A stretch of DNA of 64,000 nt from the NCBI GenBank assembly GCA_973895155.1, contig OZ316892.1:26373233-26437232 (forward strand). The letters run 5' to 3'. This DNA is from Marsupella aquatica (lineage: Eukaryota; Plantae; Marchantiophyta). The notes beneath the pieces are model-generated. The model was not told the origin of the DNA, searched no databases, and saw only the letters and a program-made list of their open reading frames with translations. Shown here piece after piece: positions 15,355 to 50,871 of the stretch. Position 1 is the stretch's first letter; the number at the start of each line of letters is the position of its first letter. The position numbers and the translations under genes were made by a program.

Positions 15355-15983
15355 TTACAATATTTGTAAATAATTACAATGCCTTGAAAAACTATTGGAG
15401 TCTAATACTTTGGTAAAAGCATCCGTTGGATTAAGCTTTCCATCAATCTTGACAAGCTCAAATTCATCATCCGATAATGCCTGTCGGATGAAATGATAGC
15501 GGACATCAATGTGCTTTACCCTGTCATCCATCACCTGATTCTTGGCAGTGTAAATTGCACTTTGACTGTCACAATGAAGATATGCACACTCTTGTGATAA
15601 ACCCATCTCCGTGACAAGATTTTTCAACCAAATGGTCTCTGATGCTGCTTCTGCTGCTGCTACATACTCGGCATCCATAGTAGACTTTGCAACACACTTT
15701 TGGAGAGTAGACTTCCAACTAATGCATCCACCAGCAAGTGTAAATACATATCCAGTTGTCGATCTCCTCTTATCCAGATCACCTGCGTAGTCTGCATCCA
15801 CATAACCTTGAAGCACTTTCATATTGTTTGAACTTGCATCAAACAATAAACCCTTCTTAGTGGAACCTCTGATGTAGCGCAAAATCCATTTCACTGCTTC
15901 CCAATGAACTTTTCCTGGATTTGCCATGTATCTGCTTACCTTGCTAACGGCATAAGCTATGTCTGGTTGGGTGCATACCATGA
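15355..15983 (-). pseudogene. Copia pol C-terminus (end of RT plus RNase H), cut off by the nested insertion
   Basis: MVCTQPDIAYAVS, GYVDADYAGDLDKRRSTTGY, HCDSQSAI, KHIDVRYHFIR, NPTDAFTK. Confidence 0.93.
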
Positions 15984-18889: not shown

Positions 18890-19394
18890 CGTAGCTTCTC
18901 TCTCTTCTCTCTCCCTTGCAATCAAAGTCTCCACGTAGTCACGGTAAGCAGCCTTGTATCTCCGAATGCGTGCCACACTAAACTCTGGTTGATCTAGCAT
19001 TCATGCATCCTGAAATCAAATTCTCAATCACCAAATCCCGCCACCCGTAGCAATGTCAATTCCCTGGCCCGAAACAGCCCCCGTAGCCCGATTAATTTAT
19101 TTCTCTCAATCCCCTCCGTCGTCACTCCATGTTGCTGTCGTTAATGCCCTGACAGTCCCCGCAATCCCCCATGAGTGAGCCTTGAGAAGAATTGGAGAGA
19201 AAGCTCAAATAATTGTAACATAAGGAGAAAGCTTTCGGCAATAAGGGAGAGAAACTCGAGTTTGCTTTCGGCAAGAGAAGGGTCGTGTGAAAAGGAGAAA
19301 AGAGGGGAGAGAAAAAAACAACAAAAACCCCCCCGGGAGCAGCTTTTCGCCTTGCGCCCTGGAGCCCTCCTTTGTCCCGACTCACGGGAGTCCC

Positions 19395-19715
19395 CCTTCC
19401 TCGCAGCTCGCGCCTCGCAGCTCGTGGCTCGCGGCCCGCAGCTCGCGGCTCGCAGCTCGTGGCTCACTCGCGGATGCTTCCCCTTCCTCGCACGACAGCT
19501 CGCAGCTCGCGGCTCACTCGTGGACGCTTCCCCTTCCTCGCACGGCAGCTCGCGGACCTCCTTAGGAGGGATTTATTTTAAAACCCCCCCATACTCCTCA
19601 CTCGCGGCAGCTCGCAGCAGCTCCCGCCCTCTGCAGGGCTCGCAGCTCGCGGCTCACTCGCGGACGCTTCCCCTTCCTCGCACGGCAGCTCGCGGCTCGC
19701 GCCTCGCAGCTCGCA
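19395..19715. repeat. GC-rich degenerate 7-bp (GC[A/G]GCTC) tandem array with a larger ~40-bp repeated unit
   Basis: Many GCAGCTC/GCGGCTC units. GCTCACTCG(C/T)GGA(C/T)GCTTCCCCTTCCTCGCACG occurs 3 times (~19462, ~19512, ~19652). Confidence 0.85.
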
Positions 19716-20058
19716 GAAGGATTTAATGGGGGTTTAATTAAACCCCCCATACTCCTCCAGTCCTGCCTGAGTGTTGCTTTAGAAGGGGTGTTACCAAAAA
19801 ATTAAAAATGCTTATTTCCCGGACTTCCTTACCTTCCCGGAAAGTCACAATTTTAAACCCCCCCAGGTTTTTGCCCCATAATTAACCCGGGTCTAGACAA
19901 AACTGTTGGGGTCTCCGACTATCCCGAGATGCTTTAAAAAACTTTACAGATTTAAAGAACATTAAAAAAAAACTTGCGTCTATGGGCTTATTTATTTACA
20001 GGTGTCTTGCTGGTGACACTAATGGTGATTTACCGTGGCGGGACCCCATCACAGATAC

Positions 20059-23000: not shown

Positions 23001-23455
23001 AGTTGTAAGGCTTTCTTTTCTTCGCTCAAATGCTCCCCCAAATTCTCTAGGTCAACCACAAGATCATTGAACTGATCGATATGATCTTGAATCTTGACTC
23101 CATCAGCCATTTTGAATTGCATGAGCTTCAGGCTTGCATACATTCGGTTTGACATCTCCTTCTTGTAGTACTTGTTGCGCAATGCTTGAAACAAGTCCGT
23201 CACCGTTTGTGTTGTTTTTTCCTCGAACTGCTTATTCACATTGTTTTTCAGGTACATGCCAACAATACTTACCGCTTGATCCTGGAGATCATGCCAATCA
23301 TCATCTTCCATCTCCTTGGGTTGAGATCTTAGTACCTTGCCTAGGCCCATCGCCCTAAGTGCATCCCTCACGTTACGTTCCCACATTGTATAGTCCATCC
23401 GACCATCAAATTTTTCCACCTCAAACCTTTGACATCCAATCCTAGTAGTCGCCAT
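20059..23455 (-). pseudogene. Copia gag-protease-integrase-RT polyprotein with stops and a frameshift
   Basis: Gag VEKFDG and degenerate zinc knuckle; protease WILDSACSYHM; GAG-pre-integrase LWHARLGH; integrase HSDVWGP, RSDSGEY, PEQNG; RT FKARLVAKG, LYVDDML. In-frame stops at 21629, 21131, 20948 and 20525; frameshift near 20165. Confidence 0.95.
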
Positions 23456-24612
23456 CGCTGGAATGCCAAATGTAGTGTGGAGTCACCTTCCGACAAGAAA
23501 TAAACGTCGAATGCTCAGATGTGGGGTGTGAAAATAAGGCCAAAAATGAAAGTTGGTGAATTTTGAAATTGATCACTCCTATGTGTAGCCCACAAGGTAA
23601 CGCTCCGAATTCTGAAAACGGTTTGTCAAATGGACTCTCGAGTGCCGAGAATTTTTACTCCGACCGGAGGGGGGTAAAAGATGAAATAATTACCCCTCGA
23701 GGGAATCTCTTATGTCAAAGATTCCACTAGTATACTTTTTCAGAATTGAACGCACCAATACTTGCCTAGCTTCCCCAAGTACGCCTCTCCAAAAGTTGAA
23801 GTTGATCCAATTTTATTTGCCGCTCGGAATCTTTGACTTTCGGTAAAAATTTAAGCCTCTGGAAAAGAATCTTTTCGGGAAATTCCGTCCGCCCTTGTAC
23901 AGCCCCTATGGGGACTTCACAGGGGGCACTTCCCCCTGCCCGAGCCCTGTCGAGCCCTTGAAAGGCCTCCTCGAACTTTTCGACCTCCTCGCGCGCCCGC
24001 GCAAGTCGTGACTACTCGCGGCAGAAAATACCCCTCGGCGGATTCACTCAAATTCCCGTCTCAATTTTTGACAAAATCCAATTCTGATTTCAGATTCAGA
24101 AACTAGACTTCGAGGGCATCAAGATCGATATAAAGAACTTGCAAAACGGTGGAGTAATGAGGGAGAAACAGTTCGGTGAAAGTGACTGATATTAAGTTAT
24201 CCACCATAGCCAAAATTTCGAGCTCAAAAAACGAGAATTGAAATTAAGATTGCTTCTCAACCGTTTGACGGAATTCAACGATGTTGATATCGAAACGTCT
24301 AGAAAGACAAGACGCTCAAGCGTATCTCAGTTTCAAGTCCCGATAGAACAATCAAAAAGACTGATCTGAGAAATTGACCTTATCTCTTGCCCGATAACGT
24401 AAATTGAAAACCGTCACTTACAATTGTTTCCATTTCTGACCTCAGGCCTTCATTGCTTCACTGAAATGAGCCCCTGGTTGTGTGCTCCACACTTGTGAGA
24501 AGATTGAGTCCGATCTGCTTTCAATAGCTCCGCTTCGAAGAGGAAATCATCCGCTGTTCACTTTGCTTGAAGCAAGTTCTATGGAGTTCCTAATCAATTG
24601 AAAAATACCTGA

Positions 24613-24624
24613 GCTCTGATACCA
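24613..24624 (-). other. Copia primer-binding site (tRNA-iMet)
   Basis: Minus-strand TGGTATCAGAGC, 2 nt after the 5' LTR. Confidence 0.95.
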
Positions 24625-24626
24625 AT

Positions 24627-24952
24627 TGTGGGGAGAAATCAGATCAGGAAAAACACTCCAAACATACACGTGCTCAATAGTTACGTGGTTCGTCTCAAGG
24701 TTGGCTACGTCCACGGGAAGACCAAGCTTTATTAACGGTTATGTGTCTACTCAAGCATCACCATAGCTCCCATCTCTTCAAGCTCTCATCTCTTGCTATA
24801 TCACTGTGTTCTCTCTTGAGAACTATCTTGTATGTTCTCACACCACATACAAGTTGAAGAGATAAGGACCAATCTCTTCAACTAGGGTTAACACTCTAAC
24901 CCTAGTTAACATACTAACCATAGTTCAACCCAAGACTGAGTTAACCTCTACA
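24627..24952 (-). repeat. Copia 5' LTR
   Basis: 326-bp TG..CA repeat matching 14835-15160; followed on the minus strand by the PBS. Confidence 0.95.
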
Positions 24953-26115
24953 AGGCAAAGGTTGGAAAGGTTCTGGCCCTTGCAGTCCCAACCTTTCAGA
25001 AACAAACCTCTTAAAAAGAACATTCAGATCAAGGAGTGTGCATGCACCACTAACGCAAGGACCTTTGCCAGAAAGCAAAACACAGACACTTCATTTTCAC
25101 ATGATTGTTAATTAACAATTGCATTCTAAACCTGTGTATAATGTCATTGTCGACAGAACAAAGTGAAATAATACTAGTGAGATTCAAACCTGGATTTGAG
25201 AGTAAAAGTGATCCAAGATAATATGGCCGTCATGACCAAATATACAAGAAAAATGTAATCAAGCAATAATACATACAGAGAGGCTTGGAGCGCTTGGTCA
25301 TGGACCTTGGTACTGGGAGGTGCTTTGGTTAGGGAGTTCTTCCATGTCCCCCGTTTTCACTCCCTAACTCAACCTTGCAAAGGTGTGCAGTGCATCAAAA
25401 GTGTTAGCAGTACACTCCCATTGCCTCACCCTCTTTGGAAATAATGGGGTACTGCAACCATAGGGTGTGAATGGAAAATGAGGCTTAGGGTATACTTATA
25501 GTATTTAAATAAACACTTTTTGCAAGTTATGGCTATGTAATTTTTAGAGCATTTATTTTATAAAGGCTTGGCACACCTTGCTTTGAGGAGGGAATTATGC
25601 AATGGTCAATCTAGGCATTTGTAACTCAAACGGAAAAGTTGAACCATATTAAGCAAAATGGCCTAAAATACTGGTATTTTGAGTCCTTATTTCTTTACAC
25701 ACTAAATAATCCATTATCTTAACTTCAGTGAATTTATTTTTTCTTGTTTCTTTCCAAAATTCACTCTCAAGATTTTAAGGATGTAGTAAAAGTCCTGTTT
25801 ATAGAGCATTGTTGGATATAGTGCCTCCAAAAATGAAAGCTTCAACTCAAGTTAGGAGAGGCTATTGTTTCCCATAATGCTCTGATAATAGGACCTTAAT
25901 ACACTTTAAGGCCTAGGAGATTTTTATTCTTACTATTTTAGTAAAACTAAAGAAGAATCTTCGATTCCTAACTAGGTGATCCAAACCTTAACTGGGCATT
26001 TATCTCCAAGAATGCCCCTGAAAATACAAAGAAAAAACCACGAAGAGCATTAAGTAAGTTAAAACATCTTGGGAAAATGTCTTCTCCAACTTGGGCTAAG
26101 CTTTGGTTTTTGGTA

Positions 26116-30896: not shown

Positions 30897-31665
30897 AATT
30901 CCCCCCCCTCCAAACTCCCCTCCAAGAGCAGGCAGGGTCGAAAGGCTTCCCGGGGATTGTAGTGTCTCTCGATCAGCTCGTTCTTGAGCAGCAGCACCAG
31001 TTATCACTGAATCTTAAAAGCTGAAGCGTCACTGGAGACTGAGATGTGAAGAACCCAGTACAAAATTGCAATGTTTGATGCAAATGAGAGAGCTGGGACA
31101 GCGATGGAGGAGCGATGGAGGACTGCTGCTGCTGCTGCAACGTCTGGGATTTGAGCTCCGCATTTCCCGGTGACTCGCAGAGGTTCTGGATTACGGTGGC
31201 TTTACAAGAACTTGGGTACGCGGTTCCGTTTTTTCTATGTGTGAGATGCAATCGTAGCCATTCATATGTGGGAACAGGCGACACTGCACTTTACATAAAT
31301 TTGGGGGGGACTTGGGGGCACAGTAAAACAAAACCATTACCTACCCGTCATATGTCGGTATGTCACTTTTTGGGGGTTGGGTAAGTGGATATCCAAATAT
31401 GACATATACCTTCCATACCACACTACTTATTTTCTTTAAATCAACTAGCCGGATTACCTCTTTACTTGATTACCTGGTTCCTTGAACCTAAAGACATATG
31501 AAGAAAAAAGTCTTGCACAATAATATTTCTATGCTATTTGGTTAATACTCATTTGAAGTGTTTTTTTTAGATTCATGATCACTTTTGTCTGGGGTTACTG
31601 TTTAGAGGCTTCACTCTAGATCCTAGGCCCTTAAGAATAGACTTAGTTGGTGCAAGTGCCCACCA

Positions 31666-31841
31666 TGTCGTGACATATAGTATCGTAGCCATAGTGTATC
31701 GAAAACATACAAGTCACCGGCAAGGCATATGTGCAAGCTGCTAGCAACCAACATGCATAGAAAAAATCCAATCACATTCACAAGTGCCAAGAAAAAGCAA
31801 ATGAAGTGGTATGTACGTAGTGGAGGTGTAAACCTCTGTAT
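31666..31841 (-). repeat. Repeat A, terminal copy (176 bp)
   Basis: Matches 32202-32377 with 2 substitutions; forms the ...CACGACA 3' end of the element. Confidence 0.95.
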
Positions 31842-32199
31842 ATAAAAGGCGTGATAGAAACAAGTGTACTGAAATCGAATCGAAAACCGGCGGGATGCCA
31901 AGATCGGCCGGGAGCATCTAACGAATCACTGTGTGAATCCCGTGTACGGAACCGACGAGCACTGTCTGAGCTCTGTCAACAGCGATTCAAGAAGAACTGA
32001 AAACCCACAAAGAAAGACATGCCCTAAGCCAGCAAAGTCCTGGCGTCACACTAACAAGCACATTTGCTTCAAGAACGGCCCAGACTTGCTACAAGAACAT
32101 GTCACTAACTCAGGTAGTACACTAGCCTTAACTACATACCTAGCGGGCAGGCGAGGGACATGCCGATATGCATAAGAGGCACTGTCCCTCGGCATGACA
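31842..32199 (-). repeat. Repeat B, internal copy (358 bp)
   Basis: Matches 41076-41428 with about 3 substitutions and one 5-bp indel. Confidence 0.95.
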
Positions 32200-32201
32200 G
32201 C

Positions 32202-32377
32202 TGTCGTGACATATAGTATCGTAGCCATAGTGTATCGAAAACATACAAGTCACCGGCAAGGTATATGTGCAAGCTGCTAGCAACCAACATGCATAGAAAA
32301 AGTCCAATCACATTCACAAGTGCCAAGAAAAAGCAAATGAAGTGGTATGTACGTAGTGGAGGTGTAAACCTCTGTAT
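32202..32377 (-). repeat. Repeat A, internal copy (176 bp)
   Basis: Directly follows the G11 tract on the minus strand; separated from B by the dinucleotide GC (32200-32201). Confidence 0.95.
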
Positions 32378-32388
32378 CCCCCCCCCCC
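32378..32388 (-). other. Polypurine tract (G11)
   Basis: C11 on +, about 30 nt after the pol stop codon and abutting repeat A. Confidence 0.75.
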
Positions 32389-32420: not shown

Positions 32421-35400
32421 TTAGGTAGCACGTGGAGCACAAGAAGGGCAAAACCATAACCCTTCTGGCACCTGGGTAAGTTCAGGCCGAAGGCAAAAAA
32501 GATGGTACCCTCCATTGCAATTGTCACACAGCAGCATCTGGTCAGCATCATCAATTCGCAAACACACCTTGCAAGGGTAGTCCACAGGTGGAATCCAAGT
32601 AGAAGTCACAATGGTGGGATCTAGGTTAGGCAGATGACAAGGGGCGCAATTCTTGGCATTGTCAGCAATTGTGCGCCCATCTGCCCCTTGTAACTCTAGC
32701 ACTCCAGACGGTCGAATAGCTTTAACCCTGAGAATAGTACGACTGGTAGAGGTGTCCAGGGTATCGTTAGCTTGCCGCTGCAAGTTTACAAAATCTCCCA
32801 CATCAAACTTCCTGACCTTGGGCTGAAAAGTGCCCCCTCGTGTGTGTGCATAACGCAGTGTGTCCCTGTGCTGTGCAATGGCCAAATTCTCCATGGCCAT
32901 GGGCATAACCCTCCTGAATAGGGCAGCCCTCTCAGAGATCACATCAGACCAAGTCACAGTTGAATCCAAGTCCACCACCTGAAGCATGTGAGCAGCAATA
33001 GCAGAAGGTGGAACTGGGTGACGACCAAACAACAAGAAGTAGGGAGAAAAGTTAGACAGTGATGCATGTCTGGACATCCTATACCCCATGGCAATGTAGG
33101 GTAAGGCCAGGTCCCAATCCTCCTTGTTTTTGGTGAGGCAGATCTTCCGGAGGCCCTTCTTGCATGTCTGAACCATGCGCTCTGCCAAGCCATCTGCCTG
33201 TGGGTGATCTCGTGATGTCCGGCGATGATCAATAAGGGCCTGATCAAGCAGCTCCTGGAACTCTCCTCTAAACTCTGAGCCCTGGTCAGTGAGACATTCT
33301 GCACAAGCTCCAAAGCGGCTGAGAACTTGTTGTAGGAATGCCTGGCTGGTGCTACGGGAGGTCTTATCCGGCAATGCCACAAGTTCTATCCACTTGGAGA
33401 AATGCTCTATCATGATCATGATGTAGAGATTACCCCGAGATGTGAGGGGTAATTCTCCAGCCAGATCACATGACCAACGATAAAACATGCCCTGAATAGG
33501 GAGTGGGTGAAGTGTGGGTTGCCGAGACGTGAAAGAAGTCCTTACCCTATCACACTGCTCACACCGAGCAATAACATCTTGAACCTGGCCATGCATGCCT
33601 CTCCAATGATAATGAGGGACCAAGAGGCTGTAAGTCCTCTTAACGCCAAAATGACCAAGCTCAGAATGTACCTTACGAATAAGGCCAACCCTCTCATGAA
33701 TGGGTGGAACCACCACTTCCCTATCTGGCAAGCAGCGCACGAGATGATCTCCCTTCCACAAGTAGCGCTTGGACCTTTGTTGAATTCGGTCTCTCTGGGT
33801 TGCAGTAACATGTATGGGGTACTCCCCATGCTGCAAAAATCTCAGAGTGTCGTTGTCCTCCCATATGTCCACCACAGGTTGGTCAACAATGTAGCATGGC
33901 AGCAAAGCAAGATAGGTAGATGCATGAAATGTAGGCAGGATGGAAACCTGGTCAAAATCCTGCCGTGCATCTGAGGGATCATCAGAGGCAATCAAAGGGC
34001 TGCGGGACATAGTGTCAGCATTTTGATGTGTCACACCAGGCCTATGAATTACCTCAAAATCATACTCCTGGAGTATGAGCGCCCAACGAGCAAGCTTGCC
34101 AGTAAGCTTGTCGTTGGTCATCAACCACTTCAAGGGCTGGTGGTCGGTGTAGAGAACAAACCTGGTCCCATAGAGGTAGGGCCTGTAATGTATGACAGCC
34201 CACACAACAGCAAGGCATTCACCCTCATAAGAAGAATAATGACTCTCTGCCTGATTGTTGCTCCTGGATGCATAGGCAATGACGTACTCCTTACCTTCCT
34301 CATCATGCTGGCCCAGAATGGCACCAATCCCAAGGGCACTCCAATCTGTGTGTAGCACAAAGACCTTGCTGAAATCAGGTCTTCTCAGCACCGGGTATTC
34401 TGAGAGCTTCTCCTTCAAAGTGGCAAATGCTGCCTCAGCATCTGTACTCCATGTCCAAGTCACATTCTTTTTCAACAAAACATACAATGGGTGTGCAATG
34501 GTACTGAAATCTTTGATGTAGATCCGGTAGTAATTGCACAACCCAATAAAACTCCTCAAAGTGTGAACATCGGTAGGAGTGGGCATTTCCAAGATGGATA
34601 CCACCTTGGCCCAGTGAGCCATGGTTCCATTTGGAAGAATGCGATGCCCAAGATATACAACTGATCTAACAGCAAATTCACACTTCTTGGGGTGTATCTT
34701 TAGGTTCACCTTCTTAAGCCTCATGAATAGCTCCTCAAGGTCAAGTAGATGTTGGTCAAATCCTTTGCTGTGGACCAACACATCATCAATGTAGCATTTC
34801 AGAAACTCAGCACCTTGAAGAACCTGGTCCATGACTCTTTGAAAGAATATGGGCGCATTCTTCAAGCCAAATGGCATCACCAACCACTCCCATAGTTGGT
34901 TACTACCATGGAAAGTTGTTTTCTTGCGGTCCTTTGCAAGCAGCAAAATCTGGTTAAAGCCTTGCCTTAGATCCACAAGACTGAAGATGTCTGAGTCTCC
35001 AATGCTGTCAAATAGCTCCTCTGGCCGTGGCATGGGGTACCTGTCCTGGGGTGTGACCAGGTTCAGTGGCCTGTAGTCCCCACATATGCGCTTCTCTGTC
35101 CACAATCCACTGGAATCCTTCTTTGCTGGCATCACTGTAGCTGCTGCAAAATCTGATGTAGAGGGCTGAATAAGACCAGCTTCATAGAGCTCTTGGCATC
35201 TCTCATCCACCAACTACCACTCATGCTTACTCAAACGGTGTCTCCGCCTGAAGATAGGTGTTTCATCAGCCAACTCAATGGAGAACTGCATAGTCTTGCA
35301 CTTACCCAAGTCCTTCATAGAGAAAGCAAACACATTCTCATGCTTGAGGAGCAAATTCAGCAGCTGGTCCTTCTGTCTTTTACTCAGGTGGTTGCCCATG

Positions 35401-35714: not shown

Positions 35715-37100
35715 TTATGCTGGAGGAATGGACATCTGAAAAAGGATGCAAGTGACCAGAAGCCAAGTGAGAGCATTAAGATCCATTACCCTGCCAAGTA
35801 AAGCATTCCTGGCCAGCCTGGTGGTTTTGGTGTGGCCCGTAGTACCGGGTTGGAAGCCCATAGCCCGTTCTCTCTCCTCGGGACTAGGTTCATCCCATGT
35901 ACTGGTAGAATGTCGATAAACCAGGCCAGGACCATCACCCTGAAAAGCATGTGCACCTGGAAATGATACAAATGTAGGCCAAGCAGCACGGGGCTCTCCA
36001 ATGGTATTGGCTGGATACCAAGGTGCTGGCTCTTGCCGGGTAACTGGTTGGCAAGAACTGTCAGGATCCAAAATCTGGTCCACTGTGAGGTTAGTGTCCC
36101 TGGATGTGTGGTGAAGAGCTAACTCCAGCAAGGAATGTGGTGCAAGGTTAGTCCAAAAGTTACGAAGACGATGTGCATAAGAGCCACAGTGCACTGCATC
36201 AATGAGAAGGGGTGGCCCCAAGTAGTGCTGGACCACACTGAAATCCTCTTTGACCTGTGGACGCTGGTCAAACTAAGATGGAGTATTCTCAATGATGTAA
36301 CCAACAGCAGGATAAAGGGATTGAGCCCAGGTGAGAATCTGAACCAATGCTGTGAAAAGGCCAGAACGAGAATCATGCAGTCCAGCACCGTGACCAGCAA
36401 CTGAAAACCCTTGGCATTCCCAACCAGCTATGATCAAATCAAGGGAGCCAAGAAGGGTTAAGTGCCGGTGCTGGACAAGCTGGATATCTGGAGGAAAGAA
36501 AGAAAATGCAGACTTCCATGCACTGTGTGGAAACTGCTGGGGAAATCGCTCTGAAAATTCCAGCAGACGGGATTCAGCCACTTGCCTTGCACCTGGATCA
36601 ATATCCACATAGATGTACAGCTTCACCACCATGCCAGACTGTAGGAGAGCTTCCAGGCCTGTAGAAATGCCACCAAAAAGCTCAAGCAATGTAAGGTCAT
36701 CTGAAGGAGGAGTCCATGTAACTGGTGCGCTCAAGATTGGGGCTATTGGTTGGCCATGGTGCTGCCCAAGATCCTCAAATTTGCGCAATGCAGCCACCAA
36801 AGGTCCATGGGCTGCTTGGAGCCGTTGTACCACCTCTAGTCGATGATCCACGTTGCTGGAAAGTGCTGCTATATGTGCAGCAGCATGTGCAGTAGCCACC
36901 TCATCATCATCCTCCTCAATCCAATCCTGCAATGGGTGGTTGACATAGGTAGTTGTGTGCACTGCTTTCAACACACAGTGGTGAGCCATAGGTGTATGGG
37001 CACCATGCAAATCAAGTGGAATGTAGCCCAAGTGTGAGCCATTCGTATGCCAATCAACTCTGTAGTATGCATGCTCATGCCAGTTGTCAATGGTAAAACC
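35715..37100 (-). pseudogene. C5 cytosine DNA methyltransferase domain (DNMT3-like, non-permuted) in the pol frame
   Basis: Motif I LELFGGISTG, II YVDID, IV IAGWECQGFS, VI IENT, VIII AHRLRNFWTNL, IX ERERAMGF, X RNALLGR. Same frame as RT. In-frame stops at 36273, 35715, 35487 and 35214. Confidence 0.9.
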
Positions 37101-38284
37101 TGTGGGAACAAAGCCTCCTGGCCAATGAGCACATCATACGTAGTGACATTGGTAACCAAACATCTGACTGGGAAATGCAATTCCTGATCTGTACCTCCAT
37201 TAAAAGTGAGAGTGAGTAAAGTGGAACTCTCACCCAGCACATCCTCCACAGTGCCACTAGCAGTCCGAATGTGCCACTTGGATTGCTGTAAATGATCAGT
37301 CAACAATCCCATCTTCTTGGCAAACTGAATGCCCAATATCACTGGTTGAGCACCTGTGTCTAGCATGACCACTTGAGGAGTGTGACCTTCCAACTTGACC
37401 ACTGAATTCCTATTGTCAACAATGGCAATGGTGGTGGAAACTGAAGTCCTATCACTAGGTACCACTCTCGGCAAATGATGAGGTACCTTGTGAAGGGAGT
37501 TAGTGTCCACGGTCTTTCCACTCAACAACATAGCCAGGAAAGATGGAGCAGCATGACCAGAATCAAGTGTAGCTCTGGTCACACAATCAGCAGCAATTGG
37601 TACTGGGGCAGCCAAACCAGTGGAAACATGTAAAGGAGAAGAAGAAGGTCCAGTATGTACATGAGATTGGACCTCCAAAATCGGTGTCACAGGGGCTGAT
37701 GAAGAATGCAGTGAACCCTCTAGCGCCCTGAGGACAGCTCTAGCATCCAGCTGTAAATCATGGCAACTGAAAAGTGGAGTTGTAAGAATCCTTTGTGCCA
37801 TACCGGAGGTGAAATGCTCAAGTAGCTCAGGAGAAACAACTCCCTGTGAAATGTCAGCAGCACCTGGTGGTGGAATGGATGTAGCTACAGCTCCCTCCCC
37901 CCTCGCCAACAAGGTGCGCTCTTCAGCAAGTGTGAGTGGCTGAAAAGATTGGGGCAAGACAGCCCAAGCTCCCCTGGCTCTAGTCATAGGACCGGCAGCA
38001 AGACCATCAGCCTGTACAATGCGGCGTGTGGGAGCAATACGGGAGGCAGAATGAATCTGAAAATTCTGCTGTAAGGCCAGGCTGGGGAGCAGAGGACAGC
38101 ACACACTCACCCATATGAGCATCAAATGGCAAGCCATAGAAAGAGCGGGGTAGAGGTGCTGAACTGTCAGTGGTGCCTGGGCTAGGAATGGGTTGCACAT
38201 GACCAGCCGGTTGAGAAGGACCAGCAGAGGCAGTTGACTTGCCTTTGATGTTGACAAGTTGGGCATGTAGGGACTCACCCTCAT
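36968..38284 (-). CDS. Aspartic protease region of the Gypsy-like element
   Basis: VMLDTGAQPVILG, IRTASG, YDVLIG. An apparent 1-bp deletion near 37103 disconnects it from the continuation GFTIDNWHEHAYYRVDW in the DNMT/pol frame. Confidence 0.85.
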   Translation of the reverse strand: MRVSPYMPNLSTSKASQLPLLVLLNRLVMCNPFLAQAPLTVQHLYPALSMACHLMLIWVSVCCPLLPSLALQQNFQIHSASRIAPTRRIVQADGLAAGPMTRARGAWAVLPQSFQPLTLAEERTLLARGEGAVATSIPPPGAADISQGVVSPELLEHFTSGMAQRILTTPLFSCHDLQLDARAVLRALEGSLHSSSAPVTPILEVQSHVHTGPSSSPLHVSTGLAAPVPIAADCVTRATLDSGHAAPSFLAMLLSGKTVDTNSLHKVPHHLPRVVPSDRTSVSTTIAIVDNRNSVVKLEGHTPQVVMLDTGAQPVILGIQFAKKMGLLTDHLQQSKWHIRTASGTVEDVLGESSTLLTLTFNGGTDQELHFPVRCLVTNVTTYDVLIGQEALFPQVLPLTTGMSMHTTELIGIRMAHTWATFHLICMVPIHLWLTTVC

Positions 38285-39752
38285 GAGTCAGAGACTGGAG
38301 TTGAGTGGCCTGTGTGTTGTGAGCCTCCTTCTGAGCTGGTGGCTTTTGTTGCTGCTTGGGCAATTTGTTGGCACTGGTTGCTTTGCCACTGGAAGGAGGA
38401 GCAACTGATGCAATAGGAGCCCTCCTAGCTGGTGGGGGAGTGGAAACAGGAGCAGAATGAGTGGCCTGTTGTCGTAGCTGCTTCCTCTCTGGGAATTTGG
38501 CAAAACAAACTGCCTCCAAGTGGCCCACTTTCCCGCAAAAATCACAAGATAGGTCCTTAGCAACAATATCACATTCATTAGCCTTGTGATTAGGATTGCC
38601 ACAGTAGTTGCAAGATGGCAGCATGAAAGCAGCATGTGCTGGTTTGGTCTTGGAAGCATACTGTGGCACACGGGAAGGGGTGGCCATTGTAGGAGCAGCA
38701 GCCTGGTACCTAGATCGCGGTGGACGCGCAATACTGGCCTCATAATGTGCATGGGCCAACTCAAGTTTCTCAGCAGTGTCGTAGACATTGAGCAATGTGT
38801 AGCTGTCTCCAAACTCTGAGAATACTTGCTGCAACACTTGTGAATGGAGAGCTGGTGTGCCCTCCAATGCACGAAGATAGCGATGAGCAGCTTCCAGGTC
38901 AGTGATGCTCTGGGTGTCCTCCTTCAGCTTAAGAAGCCGGCGATACATCATCTTCAAGGTTTCATCGTGCTGCCTCACAAAGGTCGCCAACTGCATGATT
39001 TTGTCAGCACTCTTGATTGGGAATTCCAATTCAAGAACCTGGAAAAACTCAGCCACTGGATCAGCAAAGGCAGGGGAATCAATGGTGGGAGAAATGCCTG
39101 ATGTAGCCTGTGCCAAGATAGTGGGAGTAATTGGTGTAGTGGTAGGAACTAGAGTAGGAGGGGAAGTGGCAGGAGCAGCAGCATGGGCTGCAATGGCATT
39201 CTGTAATGCCAATTGTGAGGCAGCCGCAATTGCACTGGCATAGGCAGGGTTAGGCAATTGTGTGACAGTAAGCAGCCGTTGAGAGTGCTGCTCATACACA
39301 TCCAAAGCCTCATGATGCACATACCTGGCTAGCTGCTTAAATGCAAAAGCATTTGTGAAATTGCTGCCATACTTCAACTCCAATTCGTAAACGACAGTGT
39401 AGAAAGTGGATTTGAACTCATGCAAAGAAACAGTGCCTGGCCGCCTGCTGAAGCGTTCAATGCGGCCAGATGAGTGGCTGGCGTCCATGCTGTATGTCGG
39501 TGAAGCAGGGACAACCACGGATGCAGAAGGGGTAAATGGCAATGAAGTGATAGCAGGCTTGGGAGTAGTGGTGAAGCGACCGCCAAATGGAGCAGAAGGA
39601 TTGCGTGGTGTGGGTGCTACTGCTGTCTGTGGACGTCGTCGAAATTGCCGAGACTCCAATGAAATTGGCACCAATGGTCGTGGATCACTCCGTAAATGGT
39701 ACCTGGGTGTCGGTGGTGATGTGCTGCTACCTCCTGGCTCGTCAACTAACAT
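38007..39752 (-). CDS. Gag-like protein with two CCHC zinc knuckles
   Basis: 581-aa ORF with CNYCGNPNHKANEC and CDFCGKVGHLEAVC (CX2CX4HX4C); lies upstream of the protease. Confidence 0.88.
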   Translation of the reverse strand: MLVDEPGGSSTSPPTPRYHLRSDPRPLVPISLESRQFRRRPQTAVAPTPRNPSAPFGGRFTTTPKPAITSLPFTPSASVVVPASPTYSMDASHSSGRIERFSRRPGTVSLHEFKSTFYTVVYELELKYGSNFTNAFAFKQLARYVHHEALDVYEQHSQRLLTVTQLPNPAYASAIAAASQLALQNAIAAHAAAPATSPPTLVPTTTPITPTILAQATSGISPTIDSPAFADPVAEFFQVLELEFPIKSADKIMQLATFVRQHDETLKMMYRRLLKLKEDTQSITDLEAAHRYLRALEGTPALHSQVLQQVFSEFGDSYTLLNVYDTAEKLELAHAHYEASIARPPRSRYQAAAPTMATPSRVPQYASKTKPAHAAFMLPSCNYCGNPNHKANECDIVAKDLSCDFCGKVGHLEAVCFAKFPERKQLRQQATHSAPVSTPPPARRAPIASVAPPSSGKATSANKLPKQQQKPPAQKEAHNTQATQLQSLTHEGESLHAQLVNIKGKSTASAGPSQPAGHVQPIPSPGTTDSSAPLPRSFYGLPFDAHMGECVLSSAPQPGLTAEFSDSFCLPYCSHTPHCTG

Positions 39753-41063
39753 GCTGCATGCTCACCTGGGTGCCAATGGGAAAGAAACTGACAAGAAAAA
39801 GAAATGGCAGCCCCAAGGCTAGGAAATAAATGGTGTGAGCAGAAATGTGTCGAATGTGCAAACACACAGAAAAACCGTTGGCAAAGAAAAGACCCTTCAA
39901 AACTCCAAGTGTACTGGTGTTGTGCTTGCGGGATTGACTGTCTGATGAACATGCCGGGCCCTCAGCTTTATGCAGATGACACGTGGCGGCAGCAAAGAAA
40001 TCCAGAAAAATGGGCCCTTAAAAACGTAAACCTGGGCCCCCCTTAAGTGTATACATCTCGGCCCGATGTGGAACCGGAAAAAGAAACGGCAAGGGAGGGA
40101 GCGATTAGGGCCCAAATTAAGCCACGGGCTCAACGCCCTATGCGGATCACGAAGCGAAGGGTGAGGCAAGGCGAAAAGTAAAGAAACGGCCCCCTTAATG
40201 ATGGCTCGAGCCCTGCATAGGGCTTTGCGCCACCTCCTGGCTCCTCATGTGCTCCCGAAGAGAAGGGAGCGACTAACTCCCCTTCCCCTGCTTTAATTGC
40301 TTATTAGGGCCTCGTGCCCTCTCCTGGCACTCTCGCTCCCCCTCCTCTCCTGCTTTAATGAATGCTTCTGTGCCTGGCAGAGTGGCAGAAGGACTCCAGG
40401 GAAAGGAGTCGAATGTAACCCCCCCACTTTAATCCTCCATAGGGCCTCGTGCCCTCTCTCTCTCAGCTCTCGCTTGTACTCGCTCCCTCTCCCCTATTAA
40501 GTGTTGGCAACCGGGGGAAAGGAAATAAAACGGCGAGGGGGAAAGAAAGAAAACGAGTCCTAATCGAGTGGAGGGCACGATGCCCTATGCGCGTACCGGC
40601 GAGCAAAAGGAAAAGAAAACGGTAAGGGAAGGCTGTCGCCCCCGATGTGTATACACATAGGGAGAAGGGCGCAGTACAAACACAGCCGCGAGGCGGCAAT
40701 AAACCTGGCGTGCGACCCTTTACGGGGCTCCGAGCAAGAGTAAAGGCATCGACCTGCCACCCGTGGCTTGTAGCCGGCCGGAAGGTAGCATGGCGCAGGG
40801 AGGCGCTGAAGCAGCAGTTGGCAGCGGCCGGAAATGGAAAACCTGAAATCGAAGCGCGAAGGAAAAAAGTGAGGGGGGGGGGGCCTGTTTGACTTAAGTG
40901 TATATACTTAAGTGTATACACAAAAGCCATAACTTCCACCCCATCGCTCAATGTTTTTCCATAGAAATTGCACCGGCATCAGCGGAAAAGCGTCAACTGT
41001 CTCGAGCAATTGAGAAGCACAGCGTCTCCGATCTTCTTCCCTTCACCGCTAACCCGGCGACAA

Positions 41064-41077
41064 AGTTCTTCTTGAAT
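41064..41077 (-). other. Putative self-priming primer-binding site
   Basis: Perfect 14-bp reverse complement of 41214-41227, at the inner edge of the 5' repeat B; no TGG tRNA-type PBS there. Confidence 0.75.
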
Positions 41078-41428
41078 AAAAGGCGTGATAGAAACAAGTG
41101 TACTGAAATCGAAAACCGGCGGGATGCCAAGATCGGCCGGGAGCATCTAACGAATGACTGTGTGAATCCCGTGTACGGAACCGGCGAGCACTGTCTGAGC
41201 TCTGTCAACAGCGATTCAAGAAGAACTGAAAACCCACAAAGAAAGACATGCCCTAAGCCAGCAAAGTCCTGGCGTCACACTAACAAGCACATTTGCTTCA
41301 AGAACGGCCCAGACTTGCTACAAGAACATGTCACTAACTCAGGTAGTACACTAGCCTTAACTACATACCTAGCGGGCAGGCGAGGGACATGCCGATATGC
41401 ATAAGAGGCACTGTCCCTCAGCATGACA
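41076..41428 (-). repeat. Repeat B, 5' terminal copy (353 bp)
   Basis: Begins TGTCATG on the minus strand; homology to the internal copy stops exactly where A would begin. Confidence 0.95.
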
Positions 41429-42664
41429 ACCATATGTTATCACATTTTTTATGTGTGATTACAGTAAAGTCTTTCTTTGCCCATGTGTGTATGCTTTTTT
41501 GTTAAGAACCTAGACCTCATCTTTAGAAGGTCTAAAAGAATGAGGCAAATGGCTGCTTGATTTCAGGGAGTTGCATTTATTGCTTCCAGACCTGACACAT
41601 TTTGGTAAGAAGGCCCCGGTCTAGACTTGCCCGACAAATAGAGCCTTCAGAGGCCGTCAAAAGGCAAGTCGGTACCCAGACCATCCCAGTCTCCAGATCC
41701 TGGTCTCGATGTCATCTTCCCAGCCTGGCCCGGCCATGACCTCCCAGCCCGAGTTCCTCTCTCTCTCCCCCTCCCCCGGGCCCCATCCCCTGGTCTTGCC
41801 CCCATTTTGACTCCCCCGGTCCCAGCCCCAGCCCCTTCCCCCGGTCCCCCCCTTTATGTATGGTACTCCCGGCCCAGGCCCGGCCCAGGCCCGGCCCACC
41901 CCCGCCTGACCCGGACCCGGACCTGGCCTCCCTCCCCTCACCCGGCCCGGCCCTGGACGGGGCAGGCCGGGTCCGGGGCCAGGTGAGGGGAGGGGCCGGG
42001 CCGGGTGCCAGGCAGGGCCAGGTCCGGGAGGGGAAAACAGGCAGGGTCCGTACGAGGCCGGGTCTTCGCCAGGACGAGTTCGAGCCGGGCCGGGGAATAA
42101 GTGCGGATATCCATCAAATAGAGGCTTTTTAGTTTGGCAAATGCAGAGTTTACATACCGGGCAACTCGGCAAGTTGCCCTCACTAAGGCCCCCTGGGCAT
42201 TGAATTATAGTAATAATGTTATCTTGATCGTGAGATAGATATAAAGGGGTCATTGTGCACCGTTTCCACGCCCAATACGTCCCTCTCTTGACATCCAATT
42301 ACCAGGCCAACTCACTGACTTCCCGTTGTGTCAAAGTGCCTGGCCATTTAGCATATGTTAGTCAACATTTCAACATCACTTACCATCAACAATCGTGTGC
42401 AACACACAAGCATCGGACACTCTAAAAATAATAATTTGCAATTAAAATCTGCTAGGCATGACCTACATCATAATTTCTCTGCAATAGAAAATTTTGATAT
42501 GTAGACCATGCTTGTGAGTATGGGTGCACATGGGAGTTTGGGCAAGGGTAACCCTTCATGTGCATATGCCACTGGTATTTGAGGTAGTTTACTTTCAAGA
42601 GCCAAACAAAGCAAAATCTTAATAACAAATTGAGATGAGAAGGTTCAGATGTAGGCTTCGAGAG

Positions 42665-42940
42665 TGAAGCCTAGATCAGTTGGCCAGGGGATTAGCCTGG
42701 AATAGAGAGGTCCCAGGTTCAATCCGCTCTCCACATCAAGGGTTGCGGAGGGTGAGGGTGATATGTGTGTGTGTGGGGCCGGGGGGGGGGGGGTAGCCGG
42801 CTTTGGTCTCTGGTCCAACTCTCTCTCCCTCCAGGTATGACCCCCCTTGTGGGCTTCCTTACAGAGGTGCATGCTCTAGAGTTGATTGTTTATCCTCTGA
42901 TGTCTGGCTGGGTCAACTTTTGATTTCAAAACACACAAAT
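42665..42940 (+). mobile_element. tRNA-derived SINE, copy 1
   Basis: Pol III box A-like TAGATCAGTTGG (~42672) and box B GGTTCAATCC (~42716). Body homologous to 57456-57768 (minus). A-rich end. Boundaries approximate. Confidence 0.75.
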
Positions 42941-44096: not shown

Positions 44097-45142
44097 GGCT
44101 AATGGGTCTGTGGCTAATCCAAGACCAAAAGTCCAGAAAACTCTAGCCAAATGTGGCTAAGACTATTCAGTGGTGGTGGGATTTGGCCAATTTATGGGCA
44201 TGGGAAGAGTGAAATTGAATTTGGGACCTATTGGTTCCAGACCCATCCCCTGGCCAGCTGACATCAGCCAGCTGGTTACTGTAGTACTACTACTGTTTTG
44301 AGTTGCTTCCCAGCACTCGGGTCTCTCCGTCACTCGCAGCTCACAGACATACACAAACTCCACAGTCCTCATTCGGCACCCAGAAAAGCAGAGAGTTGCT
44401 GGAGAACGATCACCAACCCGACCGCACATTTTGAGTGCAAGCCATTTGAGTTCAGTCGAGTTGAGTTGACTGAGCTCCACAGTCTTCAACTTGCTGATTG
44501 AGGAGGGGAAATTAGTGGAACGAGATTGAGTAAGTTGGTGAGAATGATGAAGGTTGTCAGTTTCTTCCTCTGATGGGAATGTGAGACTCGGATGAGAGTG
44601 ACGGAGGTTGTCAGGTTTCGTTGCATTGACCCTTCTGTGGGGTGGGCGAGGAGGACGGTGAGAACAAAGAGTGTGTTGATGCGGAAGGCCTGGCCCAACA
44701 ACAGCGTGGATTTGCACCAGATGGGTTGTGTTTGAGGCGATGGCGAAACTTTGAAACGCGCATTTGTCTTCGGTGCAGAGGGTGTCCTTGTTCGCTTCAT
44801 TTCGCAGAGTTTTTCTTCACTTGTGCAGGAATCAGCGGAGAGGGACGGACGGACGGATCGAAGAAACGTTGCCCTGGGAATGTGGGCTTGGAAGTGAATG
44901 GAGATCCTGCTGCAAGTTTACGATCTGGTTTACCCTACAGGTTGACAAGATGGGCGTCTTGCATTGAGCTGTTCCGAGTTTCTCATCAATGTGAAAAGAA
45001 AACAGGGCTTATGGAGCGTTTGAGGAGGATATTGGCGTTTGAGCAGATCGGAGGCTTGTAAAATATTGGTTTGTACAGGGATTTGAGGGATTTGGTCAGC
45101 TGAAGGGAACCCCACTTCTTCAACCTGCCTCCTGCCGATGAG

Positions 45143-46378
45143 ATGTCGTCTCTAGCCACTCTAATCAGCAGGGAGCTGGAGGGCTCGAGGTTGGAGGAGC
45201 AGCCCATGCTGCGCTTCGGTCAGGCTGGGCAGTCGAAGAAGGGAGAGGATTTCTATCTAGTCAAGACACGTTGTCAGAGGACTCCTACTGAAAACACTTC
45301 CTCGACCTTCAGCGTGTTTGCAATATTTGACGGCCACAATGGACGGGCGGCCGCTATATATTCGAAGGATAACGTTCTCAAGAATGTTCTCAGCGCAATA
45401 TCTCCTGGATTGAGTAGACAGGAGTGGTCAGCAGCGTTACCTCGAGCTTTGGTTGCTGGATTCGTGAAGACTGATAAAGAGTTTCAGAGTGAAGAGCAAT
45501 CGTCCGGGACAACCGTCACGTTTGTGGTTGTGGACGGATGGACTGTTACTGTGGCTTCCGTTGGGGATTCTCGTTGTATAATTGAATCTCAGGGCGTCAT
45601 TTCTTTGCTTACAGTGGATCACAGACTCGAGGTAAATGAGGAGGAGAGACATCGAATTAAATCGAGTGGCGGTGAGGTGGGTAGACTTAGTACTGTTGGG
45701 GGTGCTGAGATTGGCCCGCTGAGGTGTTGGCCTGGTGGGCTTTGCTTGTCACGATCTATTGGTGATTTGGACGTCGGGGAGTTCATTGTCCCAATACCAT
45801 TTGTCAAGCAGATCAAGCTACCATCTGCAGGAGGCAGGATTGTGATAGCATCTGATGGTGTTTGGGATGCTTTGAGTTCTGAGAAGGTGGCTAGAAGCTG
45901 TAGAGGGTTGTCTGCTGAGCTGGCAGCCAATCAGGTTGTGAAGGAATCATTGCGCTGTCGAGGATTGAGGGATGATACCACCTGTGTGGTGGTGGACATT
46001 CTTCCCCCTGTGAATGCAGTGAGTTTTGCAAAAAGGAAACCACAAAAAGGCTTTCTTGCATCAGTGCTCAGAACTCAATCTGGCAGGTTTTCTGGAAGAT
46101 CTGCAAACAGAATGATGGAAAGTGGCAAAGTGGAGGAAATTTTTGAAGAAGGTTCTGCTGCACTCTCTGAAAGGCTGGGACCTGGGAATTCGGTGCAGGG
46201 GCTGGAACAGTTAGTGTGCGCTGTTTGCCAGGCAGCCATCACACCAAGTGAAGGGATCTCAGTTCATGCTGGAACGTTTTTCTCCACTTGGGAGGGTCCT
46301 ATCTTGTGTGTAGACTGTAAGCGAAAGCAGGATGCCATGGAAGGTAAATCCGCAGTCTCGAGGATGAGTGGAGCGTAA
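45143..46378 (+). CDS. Protein phosphatase 2C (PPM family), 411 aa, single exon
   Basis: KKGEDF, AIFDGHNG, SGTT, VGDSR, TVDHR, LCLSRSIGD, IASDGVWD, GLRDDTT; C-terminal CAVCQ...CVDC pair. Confidence 0.96.
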   Translation: MSSLATLISRELEGSRLEEQPMLRFGQAGQSKKGEDFYLVKTRCQRTPTENTSSTFSVFAIFDGHNGRAAAIYSKDNVLKNVLSAISPGLSRQEWSAALPRALVAGFVKTDKEFQSEEQSSGTTVTFVVVDGWTVTVASVGDSRCIIESQGVISLLTVDHRLEVNEEERHRIKSSGGEVGRLSTVGGAEIGPLRCWPGGLCLSRSIGDLDVGEFIVPIPFVKQIKLPSAGGRIVIASDGVWDALSSEKVARSCRGLSAELAANQVVKESLRCRGLRDDTTCVVVDILPPVNAVSFAKRKPQKGFLASVLRTQSGRFSGRSANRMMESGKVEEIFEEGSAALSERLGPGNSVQGLEQLVCAVCQAAITPSEGISVHAGTFFSTWEGPILCVDCKRKQDAMEGKSAVSRMSGA

Positions 46379-48939: not shown

Positions 48940-50871
48940 TCAAACATTCGCGACCCGATGTAGCATATCCGCCTCTCTTAAGATCTCCGAGCTCAATTCG
49001 CACAGCTTCTTATACTCAAATTTGGTAAGAGACGGGGAATGCTTTACTCTCTCCCACACCTCACGCCCAATGGCCGAGAAGTCCTCTAGCGTGGGAGCAT
49101 CCTCTGGTGCGGGAGAGGGAGGCCGAGGCGCCAATAATTCGGCAGGGGAATTGGGAGGGCATCTAGTATCCACATTGAACTTCACTGCTTTCTTCCTGCC
49201 ACCGCTACCACAGCGCGCGACTCTCTCCGGGGCTCCTCCTGTACCATGAGCTTTACCTGTGCTGCCACAACGCTGAATTACTTTCTCCGAGGTTCCAGCA
49301 CTATGTGTTTTGCCCCTGCTGCCCCAACGCTGAAGTCTCTGAATTATCTCCGGGGCTCCAGCACCATGGGCTCTACCTATGCTGCCCCAACGCTGGAGTA
49401 TGTGAATTATCTCCGGCGCTCCCGCACCAGGAGCTTTGCCAATGCTGCCACAACGCTGAAATCTCTCCAAGGTTCCTCCACCGTAAGTTTTACCTCCGCT
49501 GCCACAACGCTGAAATCTCTCCAGGGCTCCTCCACCGTAAGTTTTACCTCCGCTGCCACAACGCTGTACTCTCTCCAGGGCTCCTCCACCATTAGCTTTA
49601 CCAACGCTGCCACACCGCTGAACTCTTTCCGGGGTTCCTGCACCATGAGCTTTAACTGAGCTGGATTTCCTCCTCTGTCTCCTCCTCGCCTTGGCCCTGG
49701 CTTGAATTGAATTGAGCACAGAAACCCATCGTTCATTGGTTCCTCGTTCATTGGTTCCCCGTTCGTCGTTGTCAGATACCCAAAAACTAAAATTGGAAGA
49801 AGTCTTATTGCTGTTGAACTTATTTATGGTCTTGTCTATGGCCTCCTCTATGTTCTGATTTTGCTGTACCCACAAGTTTTCAGCCTTCCTGGGCTTCTTA
49901 GGTTCCTCCCACTGACTCGTGGTGAACTTGTCCGTAGTCTCAGATGTGGCCTCCTCGTGTGTATTATGACGTACCCACAAGTTTTCAGTTTTGCTGGGGT
50001 TCTTAGGCTCCTCCCACTGACTGGTGGTAAACTTGTCGGTAATCTCAGCTACGACCTCTTCTTGTTGGTTCTGCTCTTCCCTCAGGTTCTCAATCTGTCT
50101 GGGCTTAGGCTCCTCCCACTTATTGTGTGTGAAAATGTTGAAGGTCTCAGTTATGCCCTCCTCAGCTGGAATTTGCTGCACCCACAAGTTTGCAGGCTCG
50201 CTGGGCTTCTTCGGCTCTTCCCACTCATCTGAGTCACCAGCACTAACACTCTTAGCCAAATCTTCATCCACATCTCCACCCTGCTCTCTTCGTGCTGCGG
50301 ACGAGTTGAACACATTGCGTCCTCCTTCTGTGTCGTGGTAGCCACTGCTGCTCGTACTCACCATCGAGATGTCGTTCTCTTCGAGAAATACAAAAGCATC
50401 TCGAGCTGCTGCTTTGGCAGCTGACTCGGCGTAAGACTTGGCCACTGCCTCCATGGCATGGACGTCGAATCCCTTCAGCAAAGGAGATGCGAGGTAGGAG
50501 GCAAAAGAGTAGTCCCCTGTGCATAATTGGTTCACATGATGGACTCTGTTCCTTGCATTCGCTCCTCCTAGGAACATGTCCAATGTGGTGACGCAGTTGG
50601 AGACCATCGCGGTGTTGTTATTATCCCTGGACCTGGACCTGGACCTGTTGCCTCGCTTGCAGAAGAGAGACCCCAGGGCACCCAAATCCCCCACATCAGC
50701 TGAAATCCGGGGAGGGGTAGGAAATTCGAAGCTGTAGCGACCGCTCGGATTATGACTCTCGCCCTGTGAGCTCACACATTCAGGCGTACAAAACCCTTCT
50801 TCGTCGTCGTCGGTAACGTATTGGTCATGGTGGTGGTGGTGACCATGACCAACAGACAAGCACAGCCCCAT
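48940..50871 (-). CDS. Unknown 643-aa protein with putative N-terminal lipid anchor and two internal repeat arrays
   Basis: Long ATG-initiated ORF starting MGLCLS followed by a His tract; 4 x WEEPK..NL repeats and 8 x (Q/A)R(C/W)GS repeats that keep the reading frame. Confidence 0.75.
   Translation of the reverse strand: MGLCLSVGHGHHHHHDQYVTDDDEEGFCTPECVSSQGESHNPSGRYSFEFPTPPRISADVGDLGALGSLFCKRGNRSRSRSRDNNNTAMVSNCVTTLDMFLGGANARNRVHHVNQLCTGDYSFASYLASPLLKGFDVHAMEAVAKSYAESAAKAAARDAFVFLEENDISMVSTSSSGYHDTEGGRNVFNSSAARREQGGDVDEDLAKSVSAGDSDEWEEPKKPSEPANLWVQQIPAEEGITETFNIFTHNKWEEPKPRQIENLREEQNQQEEVVAEITDKFTTSQWEEPKNPSKTENLWVRHNTHEEATSETTDKFTTSQWEEPKKPRKAENLWVQQNQNIEEAIDKTINKFNSNKTSSNFSFWVSDNDERGTNERGTNERWVSVLNSIQARAKARRRQRRKSSSVKAHGAGTPERVQRCGSVGKANGGGALERVQRCGSGGKTYGGGALERFQRCGSGGKTYGGGTLERFQRCGSIGKAPGAGAPEIIHILQRWGSIGRAHGAGAPEIIQRLQRWGSRGKTHSAGTSEKVIQRCGSTGKAHGTGGAPERVARCGSGGRKKAVKFNVDTRCPPNSPAELLAPRPPSPAPEDAPTLEDFSAIGREVWERVKHSPSLTKFEYKKLCELSSEILREADMLHRVANV

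Follow-up and report, generated by a model that had tools for sequence, protein, structure and literature searches.

The window, that is, the entire stretch of 64 000 nucleotides of Marsupella aquatica contig OZ316892.1 that was analyzed, contains a 9.76-kb Ty3/Gypsy retrotransposon at positions 41428-31666 on the minus strand, with the domain order gag-PR-DNMT-RT-RH-INT-PHD (Table 1). The element has the gag-PR-RT-RH-INT succession and the DDE integrase by which Ty3/Gypsy elements are recognized, with Ty3 Gag-Pol as the top PDB match (E 6e-89), as well as TG...CA ends and a short target site duplication (TSD); instead of the two co-linear, identical terminal LTRs of this group, however, it has an A-internal-B-A-B arrangement. 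A Pfam search of the element detected neither DAM nor a chromodomain, including between the integrase and the PHD finger, where a diverged chromodomain could be missed by Pfam. A tyrosine recombinase was not found in the element either; an rve plus H2C2 integrase and a TSD are present instead.

Table 1. Features of the element, in the order of its own reading direction
Feature	Position in window	Strand	Basis or remark
TSD right copy, ACCA, 4 bp	41429..41432	+	sequence
Repeat A1, 354 bp, 5' end of element, starts TGTCA	41075..41428	-	repeat comparison
Predicted self-primer and transcript 5' end inside A1	41214..41227	-	14-nt perfect complement of primer-binding site; start inferred
Predicted primer-binding site, A1/internal border	41064..41077	-	not tRNA-like by eye
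gag with CCHC zinc knuckle	38007..39761	-	frameshift near 38040
Aspartic protease (LDTGA)	37103..37459	-	out of frame in window copy; frameshift near 37110
DNMT3-like C5 cytosine methyltransferase domain, pol frame	35751..36698	-	motifs, PF00145, PDB sequence matches, AlphaFold fold
Motif I LFGGISTG	36680-36657	-	translation
Motif II YVDID	36611-36597	-	translation
Motif III DIQLV	36488-36474	-	translation
Motif IV DLIIAGWECQGFS	36440-36402	-	translation
Predicted catalytic Cys in motif IV	36416-36414	-	translation
Motif VI IIENT	36296-36282	-	translation
Motif VIII AHRLRNFWTNL	36176-36144	-	translation
Motif IX ERERAMGF	35876-35853	-	translation
Motif X RNALLGRVM	35810-35784	-	translation
Reverse transcriptase	34560..35300	-	YIDD at 34793; stop at 35216
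RNase H	34050..34448	-	domain match
DDE integrase with H2C2 zinc finger	32961..33719	-	acidic triad motifs at 33470, 33293, 33188
C-terminal PHD finger	32430..32600	-	closest to WSTF, CHD4, KDM5-PHD1, ATXR5, BAZ2B fingers
G-run (polypurine tract) directly before B1	32378..32388	-	sequence
Repeat B1, ~176 bp, ends CACGACA	32201..32377	-	repeat comparison
B1/A2 junction: CA, 2-nt spacer GC, TG; imperfect palindrome; predicted internal attachment site	32192..32207	-	cleavage inferred
Repeat A2	31842..32198	-	repeat comparison
A2/B2 joint, predicted join of two cDNA ends	31842/31841	-	repeat comparison
Repeat B2, 3' end of element, ends CA	31666..31841	-	repeat comparison
TSD left copy, ACCA, 4 bp	31662..31665	+	sequence

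The copy in the window is dead. The sequence-only reading of this DNA had reported nonsense codons, and there are four of these, one inside the methyltransferase domain (36275-36273) and three past it (35717, 35489 and 35216), in addition to two frameshifts that flank the protease region. In four public runs, the entire contig depth at the position of the in-domain stop shows another letter, so that this break is private to the window copy. Comparison of the paired repeats over ~530 bp shows 5 substitutions and one 5-bp indel (~99% alike), and the 4-bp TSD is intact, indicating a recent insertion, in line with the recent mobility that had been surmised. In contigs of runs X1-X4, numerous different flanks adjoin the beginning of repeat A, and in X1 and X2, the contig depth summed over the element exceeds that of the flank by a factor of hundreds, a ratio that is not a copy number but suggests that the family is high-copy. 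The 1.3-kb leader (window 39800-41070) is rich in CpG (o/e 0.78) and is shared among the copies to a much lesser extent than the coding region.

The methyltransferase domain is in the same frame as the RT, between the protease, which is frame-shifted in this copy, and the RT, just where it had been placed, and its motifs I, II, III, IV, VI, VIII, IX and X follow each other in the canonical order. The features of C5-methyltransferases, namely, the SAM-binding FxG, the Cys, the motif VI Glu and the motif VIII Arg, are all in place; the PC dipeptide of motif IV is absent, with EC instead. The PF00145 profile, the search with which had been recommended, recognizes the domain above the cut-off (E 2e-7, 31 bits, cut-off 22), and the PDB sequence matches are DNMT3A, 3B and 3C, in all cases except the last few, ahead of M.HhaI. 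The alignment with DNMT3A from the PDB search contains the very DNMT3A motifs VIII-X to which those of the element had been likened. The AlphaFold model of the domain, for which a 22-row alignment served as the input and X was placed at the one internal stop, has a pLDDT of 93; its top Foldseek matches are DNMT3A/3B (TM 0.72), and structural comparison with these proteins gives Z 28.1 and rmsd 2.6 with 270 residues aligned, compared with Z 24 for bacterial enzymes including M.HhaI. Judging by the nearest sequences and the modeled fold, the domain is DNMT3-like, with unpermuted motifs; the domain tree discussed below covers element domains only. The host DNMT3 (animal DNMT3A/B and moss DNMT3) and DRM have the catalytic fold and motifs VIII-X in common with the window domain, which differs from DNMT3A (~26% identity) in being devoid of PWWP and ADD, and from DRM in that its motifs are not permuted. 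Three features had been overlooked in the sequence-only reading: motif VI is ENT, a PHD finger ends the integrase, and the terminal repeats are split.

Relatives of the element are broadly represented in the green lineage. With the DNMT as the bait, a search for proteins of similar length yielded 158 proteins out of 3496 candidates, the named matches being from the liverwort Calypogeia fissa (78%) and the peat mosses Sphagnum compactum and S. magellanicum, as befits the land-plant lineage that had been inferred. A metagenome scan confirmed 578 of the 606 pattern matches, and the 80 loci that were kept show the order PR-DNMT-RT-RH-INT-PHD wherever the contig reaches (PR in 71, RT in 60, INT in 36 and PHD in 31); these loci are denoted moss-type because, by eye, their proteins resemble the Sphagnum-named ones. 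Searches for longer proteins (17 of 4998 and 104 of 7983) mostly recovered a different arrangement, RT-RH-DNMT-INT-PHD, with the DNMT located after RNase H in ~100 green-algal relatives, among which the named members come from Tetradesmus, Chromochloris, Haematococcus, Hariotina and Cymbomonas. A PHD finger follows the integrase in at least 81 long relatives; two relatives with the DNMT before the RT, P0217 and P0201, have no PHD detectable with Pfam, and P0201 might be cut short. In a quick unrooted tree of 110 element domains, the window, Calypogeia and moss-type copies group together with 100% support, nested within a 13-row clade (99%) that consists of all DNMT-before-RT elements and two long branches; an RT tree built with FastTree from 106 rows has the same general outline. 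This placement points to a bryophyte as the probable host of the window copy. The wide algal spread suggests a single, old acquisition of the domain rather than an oddity of Klebsormidium.

Several members of this assemblage are unusual in other respects. One 3794-aa LINE-like frame (P0235) combines an AP endonuclease, RT, a PCIF1-like methyltransferase, DNMT and RNase H; its DNMT belongs to the same family (34% identity) and forms a long branch near the DNMT-before-RT clade, so that the DNMT module appears to be passed from one class of elements to another. In an algal sub-lineage (P0240, P0241 and P0244, one named Tetrabaena socialis), which forms one clade with 100% support, long intact RT-RH-INT-PHD frames coexist with a decayed or undetectable DNMT, from which it follows that the domain is dispensable in that clade. 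Viral contigs contained only distant phage-type methyltransferases (10 loci), and nothing was found when such contigs were searched for the lineage with the decayed DNMT.

The conservation of the domain can be quantified. The omega values, obtained with a one-ratio codon model and three sequences per domain, are 0.065 for DNMT, 0.071 for RT, 0.085 for RH, 0.078 for INT, 0.158 for PR, 0.177 for gag and 0.361 for the linker, and although these are rough because synonymous sites are near saturation (pS 0.76), the DNMT is about as constrained as the RT and lies well below gag, protease and the linker. Copies intact from gag to RT, such as had been called for alongside this kind of estimate, exist as well: P0149 (Calypogeia fissa, CAM6101866.1) is a predicted protein, possibly with hidden introns, that encompasses gag-PR-DNMT-RT, and P0143 is likewise unbroken over these domains in one protein. 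The domain is neither missing nor neutral in other copies, being retained in the 80 metagenome loci and subject to purifying selection. The set of long relatives consists of 103 proteins (three cluster duplicates dropped) that were gathered with the DNMT as the bait, which favors copies retaining the domain. Of these, 96 align over motif IV, and the Cys is present in 94; the preceding residue is Glu in 58 of the 96 and Pro in another 30, whereas the motif VI Glu is found in 96 of 98 and the motif VIII Arg in 95 of 99. The sequence-only reading had noted the Cys within WECQ in place of PC and, given the prevalence of Glu before the Cys, WECQ is the family norm rather than a sign of decay.

Intact copies are fairly likely to encode a catalytically active enzyme, and a preference for CG might be expected by analogy with DNMT3. 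In the accessible text of de Mendoza et al. 2018 (PMC5890265), the DNMT3 domains of Symbiodinium retrotransposons are described as performing de novo CG methylation in yeast, and KnitGypsy-Dnmt3 of the alga Klebsormidium nitens as yielding no methylation in a test in which DNMT3B failed too. If the methyltransferase is carried along with the RT within Gag-Pol, its nearest substrate would be the freshly made double-stranded cDNA or a circle. The cDNA self-methylation idea was already put forward in the same paper, so far as its accessible part goes, and we would give the element's own cDNA slightly less than an even chance of being the target. The reading that we favor combines these elements, namely, a young, broken Gypsy copy, probably of bryophyte origin, from a family in which the DNMT3-like domain lies in a single Gag-Pol frame and is under purifying selection, with intact copies likely being active and likely methylating their own cDNA prior to integration, in the cycle outlined below; as a package, it appears to be evenly poised between right and wrong.

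The domain could, instead, be a conserved DNA-binding or structural module that, for example, holds or shields the attachment site or the cDNA ends, with little or no methyltransferase activity. Such a role would be compatible with the changes of PC to EC and of ENV to ENT or ENA across the family, with the occurrence of the domain at two different places in Pol, and with the lack of methylation by the algal counterpart in the yeast test described above. It is, nevertheless, unlikely, considering that the three residues Cys, Glu and Arg, along with the FGG motif that binds SAM, are retained over the whole green lineage, that decaying domains decay throughout (P0240 and P0241), and that PC forms are scattered among the EC forms on the tree.

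Another possibility is that an active enzyme works once inside the nucleus, on chromatin at or near the insertion site and not on free cDNA, guided by the PHD finger of the integrase, such that the DNMT3 domain is paired with an H3 reader, similarly to the ADD-catalytic pair in animals. The frequent presence of PHD after the integrase, the nearest solved relatives of this finger (Table 1), which we take to be readers of unmodified H3 tails, and the contrast between the CpG-rich predicted promoter repeat A1 (o/e 0.79) and the depleted coding part are all in agreement with this possibility. The PHD finger, however, sits on the integrase and is probably separated from the DNMT by the protease, and P0217 and P0201 have the DNMT without a Pfam PHD, which makes chromatin an improbable target.

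The depletion of CpG itself was considered as a footprint of self-methylation and rejected as non-specific. At synonymous sites, CpG is strongly depleted, the C3pG1 o/e of the coding region being 0.15-0.22, compared with 0.53 for Copia and 0.61-0.67 for host ORFs in the window, but in the moss-type loci, the contrast is reversed, with 0.40 for the element versus 0.19 for host PPR, 0.20 for MYB and 0.30 for a DNMT-less Gypsy, so that no weight was given to this feature. The Copia element, which served as a control only, is a young Ty1/Copia (window 14835-24953) with 327-bp LTRs that carry 4 differences, a near-matching 5-bp TSD and a broken coding region.

The ends of the element, with the layout A1-internal-B1-A2-B2 that is shared by the moss-type loci and is not an LTR pair, are informative with regard to replication. 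A 14-base stretch at the A1 end is perfectly complementary to positions 41227-41214 inside A1, a match reached by 0 of 5000 shuffles; this complementarity recurs in the moss-type copies, with two changes relative to the window that are compensatory, even though repeat A cannot otherwise be aligned, and 15-nt perfect self-primer pairing is found in 7 of the 24 5' ends examined. There is no tRNA gene in the 64-kb window. Self-priming is known for Tcn1 and Tf1/Sushi, as described in the accessible part of PMC6317226. Given that A1 ends with the self-primer site and B1 is preceded by the G-run, the reverse-transcribed LTR is expected to be B-GC-A. In moss-type copies (L002:5559-5730), a TATA-like box is located 32 nt before the predicted self-primer; none is seen in window A1.

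The two internal borders of the repeats behave differently. Among the 14 distinct copies (18 loci, with four pairs merged over shared flanks), the B1/A2 spacer is 2 nt in all 14, and the A2/B2 joint is exact in half of them (7) and altered in the other 7. Deletions anchored at this joint occur at L018:14698-14727, L051:4695-4771 and L068:14413-14429; in the first of these loci, no more than ~29 nt of B2 are left but the TSD is exact, and this sets a limit on the right attachment end. The element ends and the TSD coincide exactly with the CA/TG positions of the B1/A2 junction type. In eight full loci, the TSD is exact in four, differs by one transition in three and has no match in one, and in copies of the form A-internal-B, it is exact in three of the four with defined ends. 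The simplest reading, and a probable one, is that the cDNA ends are joined and the integrase then makes a staggered cut in the internal palindrome. Transcription would start inside A1, and the 5' end of the RNA would prime its own reverse transcription, in a Tf1-like manner; plus-strand synthesis from the G-run would then give a cDNA with B-GC-A at both ends, and these ends, having no TG/CA, would be joined by host end-joining. The integrase would nick both strands of the internal B/A palindrome after CA, leaving ordinary processed ends that overhang by 2 nt; once inserted, the element would have the A-internal-B-A-B form, flanked by a 4-bp TSD. A precedent is the integrase of foamy viruses, which cleaves the palindrome at which two LTRs meet, according to the accessible text of PMC1180852. 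The A-internal-B copies fit one-LTR circles and B1 x B2 recombination equally well. The circle model also predicts a second, mirror product, A-B-A-internal-B, which was found in 0 of the 35 loci with a 5' A, an absence that is without explanation in this model.

That absence would be accounted for by a PAT/Ngaro-type DIRS route, in which the transcript from A1 to B2 is copied straight into a circle with no end-joining, and the A-B-A-B layout is indeed the same as in SymbioDIRS-Dnmt3; the DNMT question would be unchanged. This route, however, appears quite doubtful because the self-primer site and the G-run define an ordinary LTR, B-GC-A, because the A2/B2 joint is ragged in half of the copies while B1/A2 is exact, and because elements of the DIRS/PAT/Ngaro type have a tyrosine recombinase and no DDE integrase, whereas in the window element, a DDE integrase and a 4-bp TSD are present and no tyrosine recombinase was found. 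Finally, the notion that a host DNMT3 fragment was captured once, in the window copy, and is decaying neutrally, or that the assembly is chimeric, which the stops and frameshifts of this copy might bring to mind, is refuted by the same position of the domain in the 80 metagenome loci and in named genomes, by the low omega and by the other letter that contigs of other copies show at the in-domain stop, and has a negligible probability.

In light of these observations, the preferred reading, an end-joined Gypsy element with a DNMT3-like enzyme, can be compared with known systems. KnitGypsy-Dnmt3, as described in the accessible text of PMC5890265, has Gypsy domains, an intronless DNMT3-type domain that is unpermuted and in frame with Pol, repeats of the DIRS-like A-coding-B-A-B form and a Ka/Ks <0.2, all of which are found in the window element, with its omega of 0.065. 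The window element differs in its land-plant host, the apparently high copy number and the PHD finger, a term with 0 mentions in that text, where we also found no description of the priming, polypurine tract, attachment site and TSD that are worked out here. By published description, which is the basis of this comparison given that no Klebsormidium sequence was among the search matches, the window family fits as land-plant members of the KnitGypsy-Dnmt3 kind, previously described in one green alga. SymbioDIRS-Dnmt3 of Symbiodinium, the only members with demonstrated CG activity according to the same text, also has a DNMT3-type domain in Pol and A-B-A-B repeats but, unlike the window element, a tyrosine recombinase and a DIRS RT, and is considered there to result from a separate capture. 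EpiLTRs and DAM-LTRs (bioRxiv 10.64898/2026.05.21.726589) are also Gypsy-like elements with DNA methyltransferases; as far as the accessible part of this preprint goes, their DNMT is sister to DNMT4 and comes with DAM and a chromodomain, in contrast to the DNMT3-like domain and PHD in the window, and 'streptophyte Gypsy-DNMT3' is named there as known. Tf1/Sushi and the plant Tcn1 chromoviruses share predicted self-priming and the Gypsy domain order with the window element and differ in having a chromodomain and ordinary LTR pairs (PMC6317226, accessible text). The accessible parts of PMC12344493 and of the 2026 adenine-methyltransferase preprint cite KnitGypsy-Dnmt3 as the streptophyte case and do not mention a bryophyte or chlorophyte Gypsy-DNMT3; those of PMC11244446 and PMC8557442 contain nothing specific, and a search of the openly accessible literature returned no paper on DNMT3-bearing Gypsy elements in bryophytes or chlorophytes.

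The new findings, then, are the selection estimate, EC as the family norm, the worked-out model of priming and integration, the wide green-algal spread, the second position of the domain and its natural loss. If the enzyme is active, a high-copy land-plant retrotransposon would bring along its own de novo DNA methyltransferase, the source of the very mark that hosts use for silencing, and cultivable liverworts and mosses make the question on the function of retrotransposon DNMTs that was posed in 2018 testable. The repeat anatomy provides a concrete model of an element with a DDE integrase in which an internal attachment site is part of the regular route. A more sweeping scenario, which is speculative and, as a whole, rather unlikely, is that the family represents the land-plant branch of an ancient green-plant Gypsy clade (prasinophytes, chlorophyceans and streptophytes) that would combine a DNMT3-type enzyme, a PHD reader and a self-primed, end-joined, palindrome-cut route, and would pre-methylate its extrachromosomal DNA so that copies arrive marked; Klebsormidium would be one twig of this clade, and the domain would have moved within Pol and come to be shared with a LINE.

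The window includes several other features. A 661-codon open frame on the minus strand (48940-50925) contains 54/63-nt and 105-nt tandem repeats and is without a clear Pfam family. Three related short repeats (42676-42725, 44214-44275 and 57706-57769) with A-box/B-box-like words are possibly a tRNA-derived SINE, and a PP2C phosphatase is encoded by a single long open frame on the plus strand (45104-46378).
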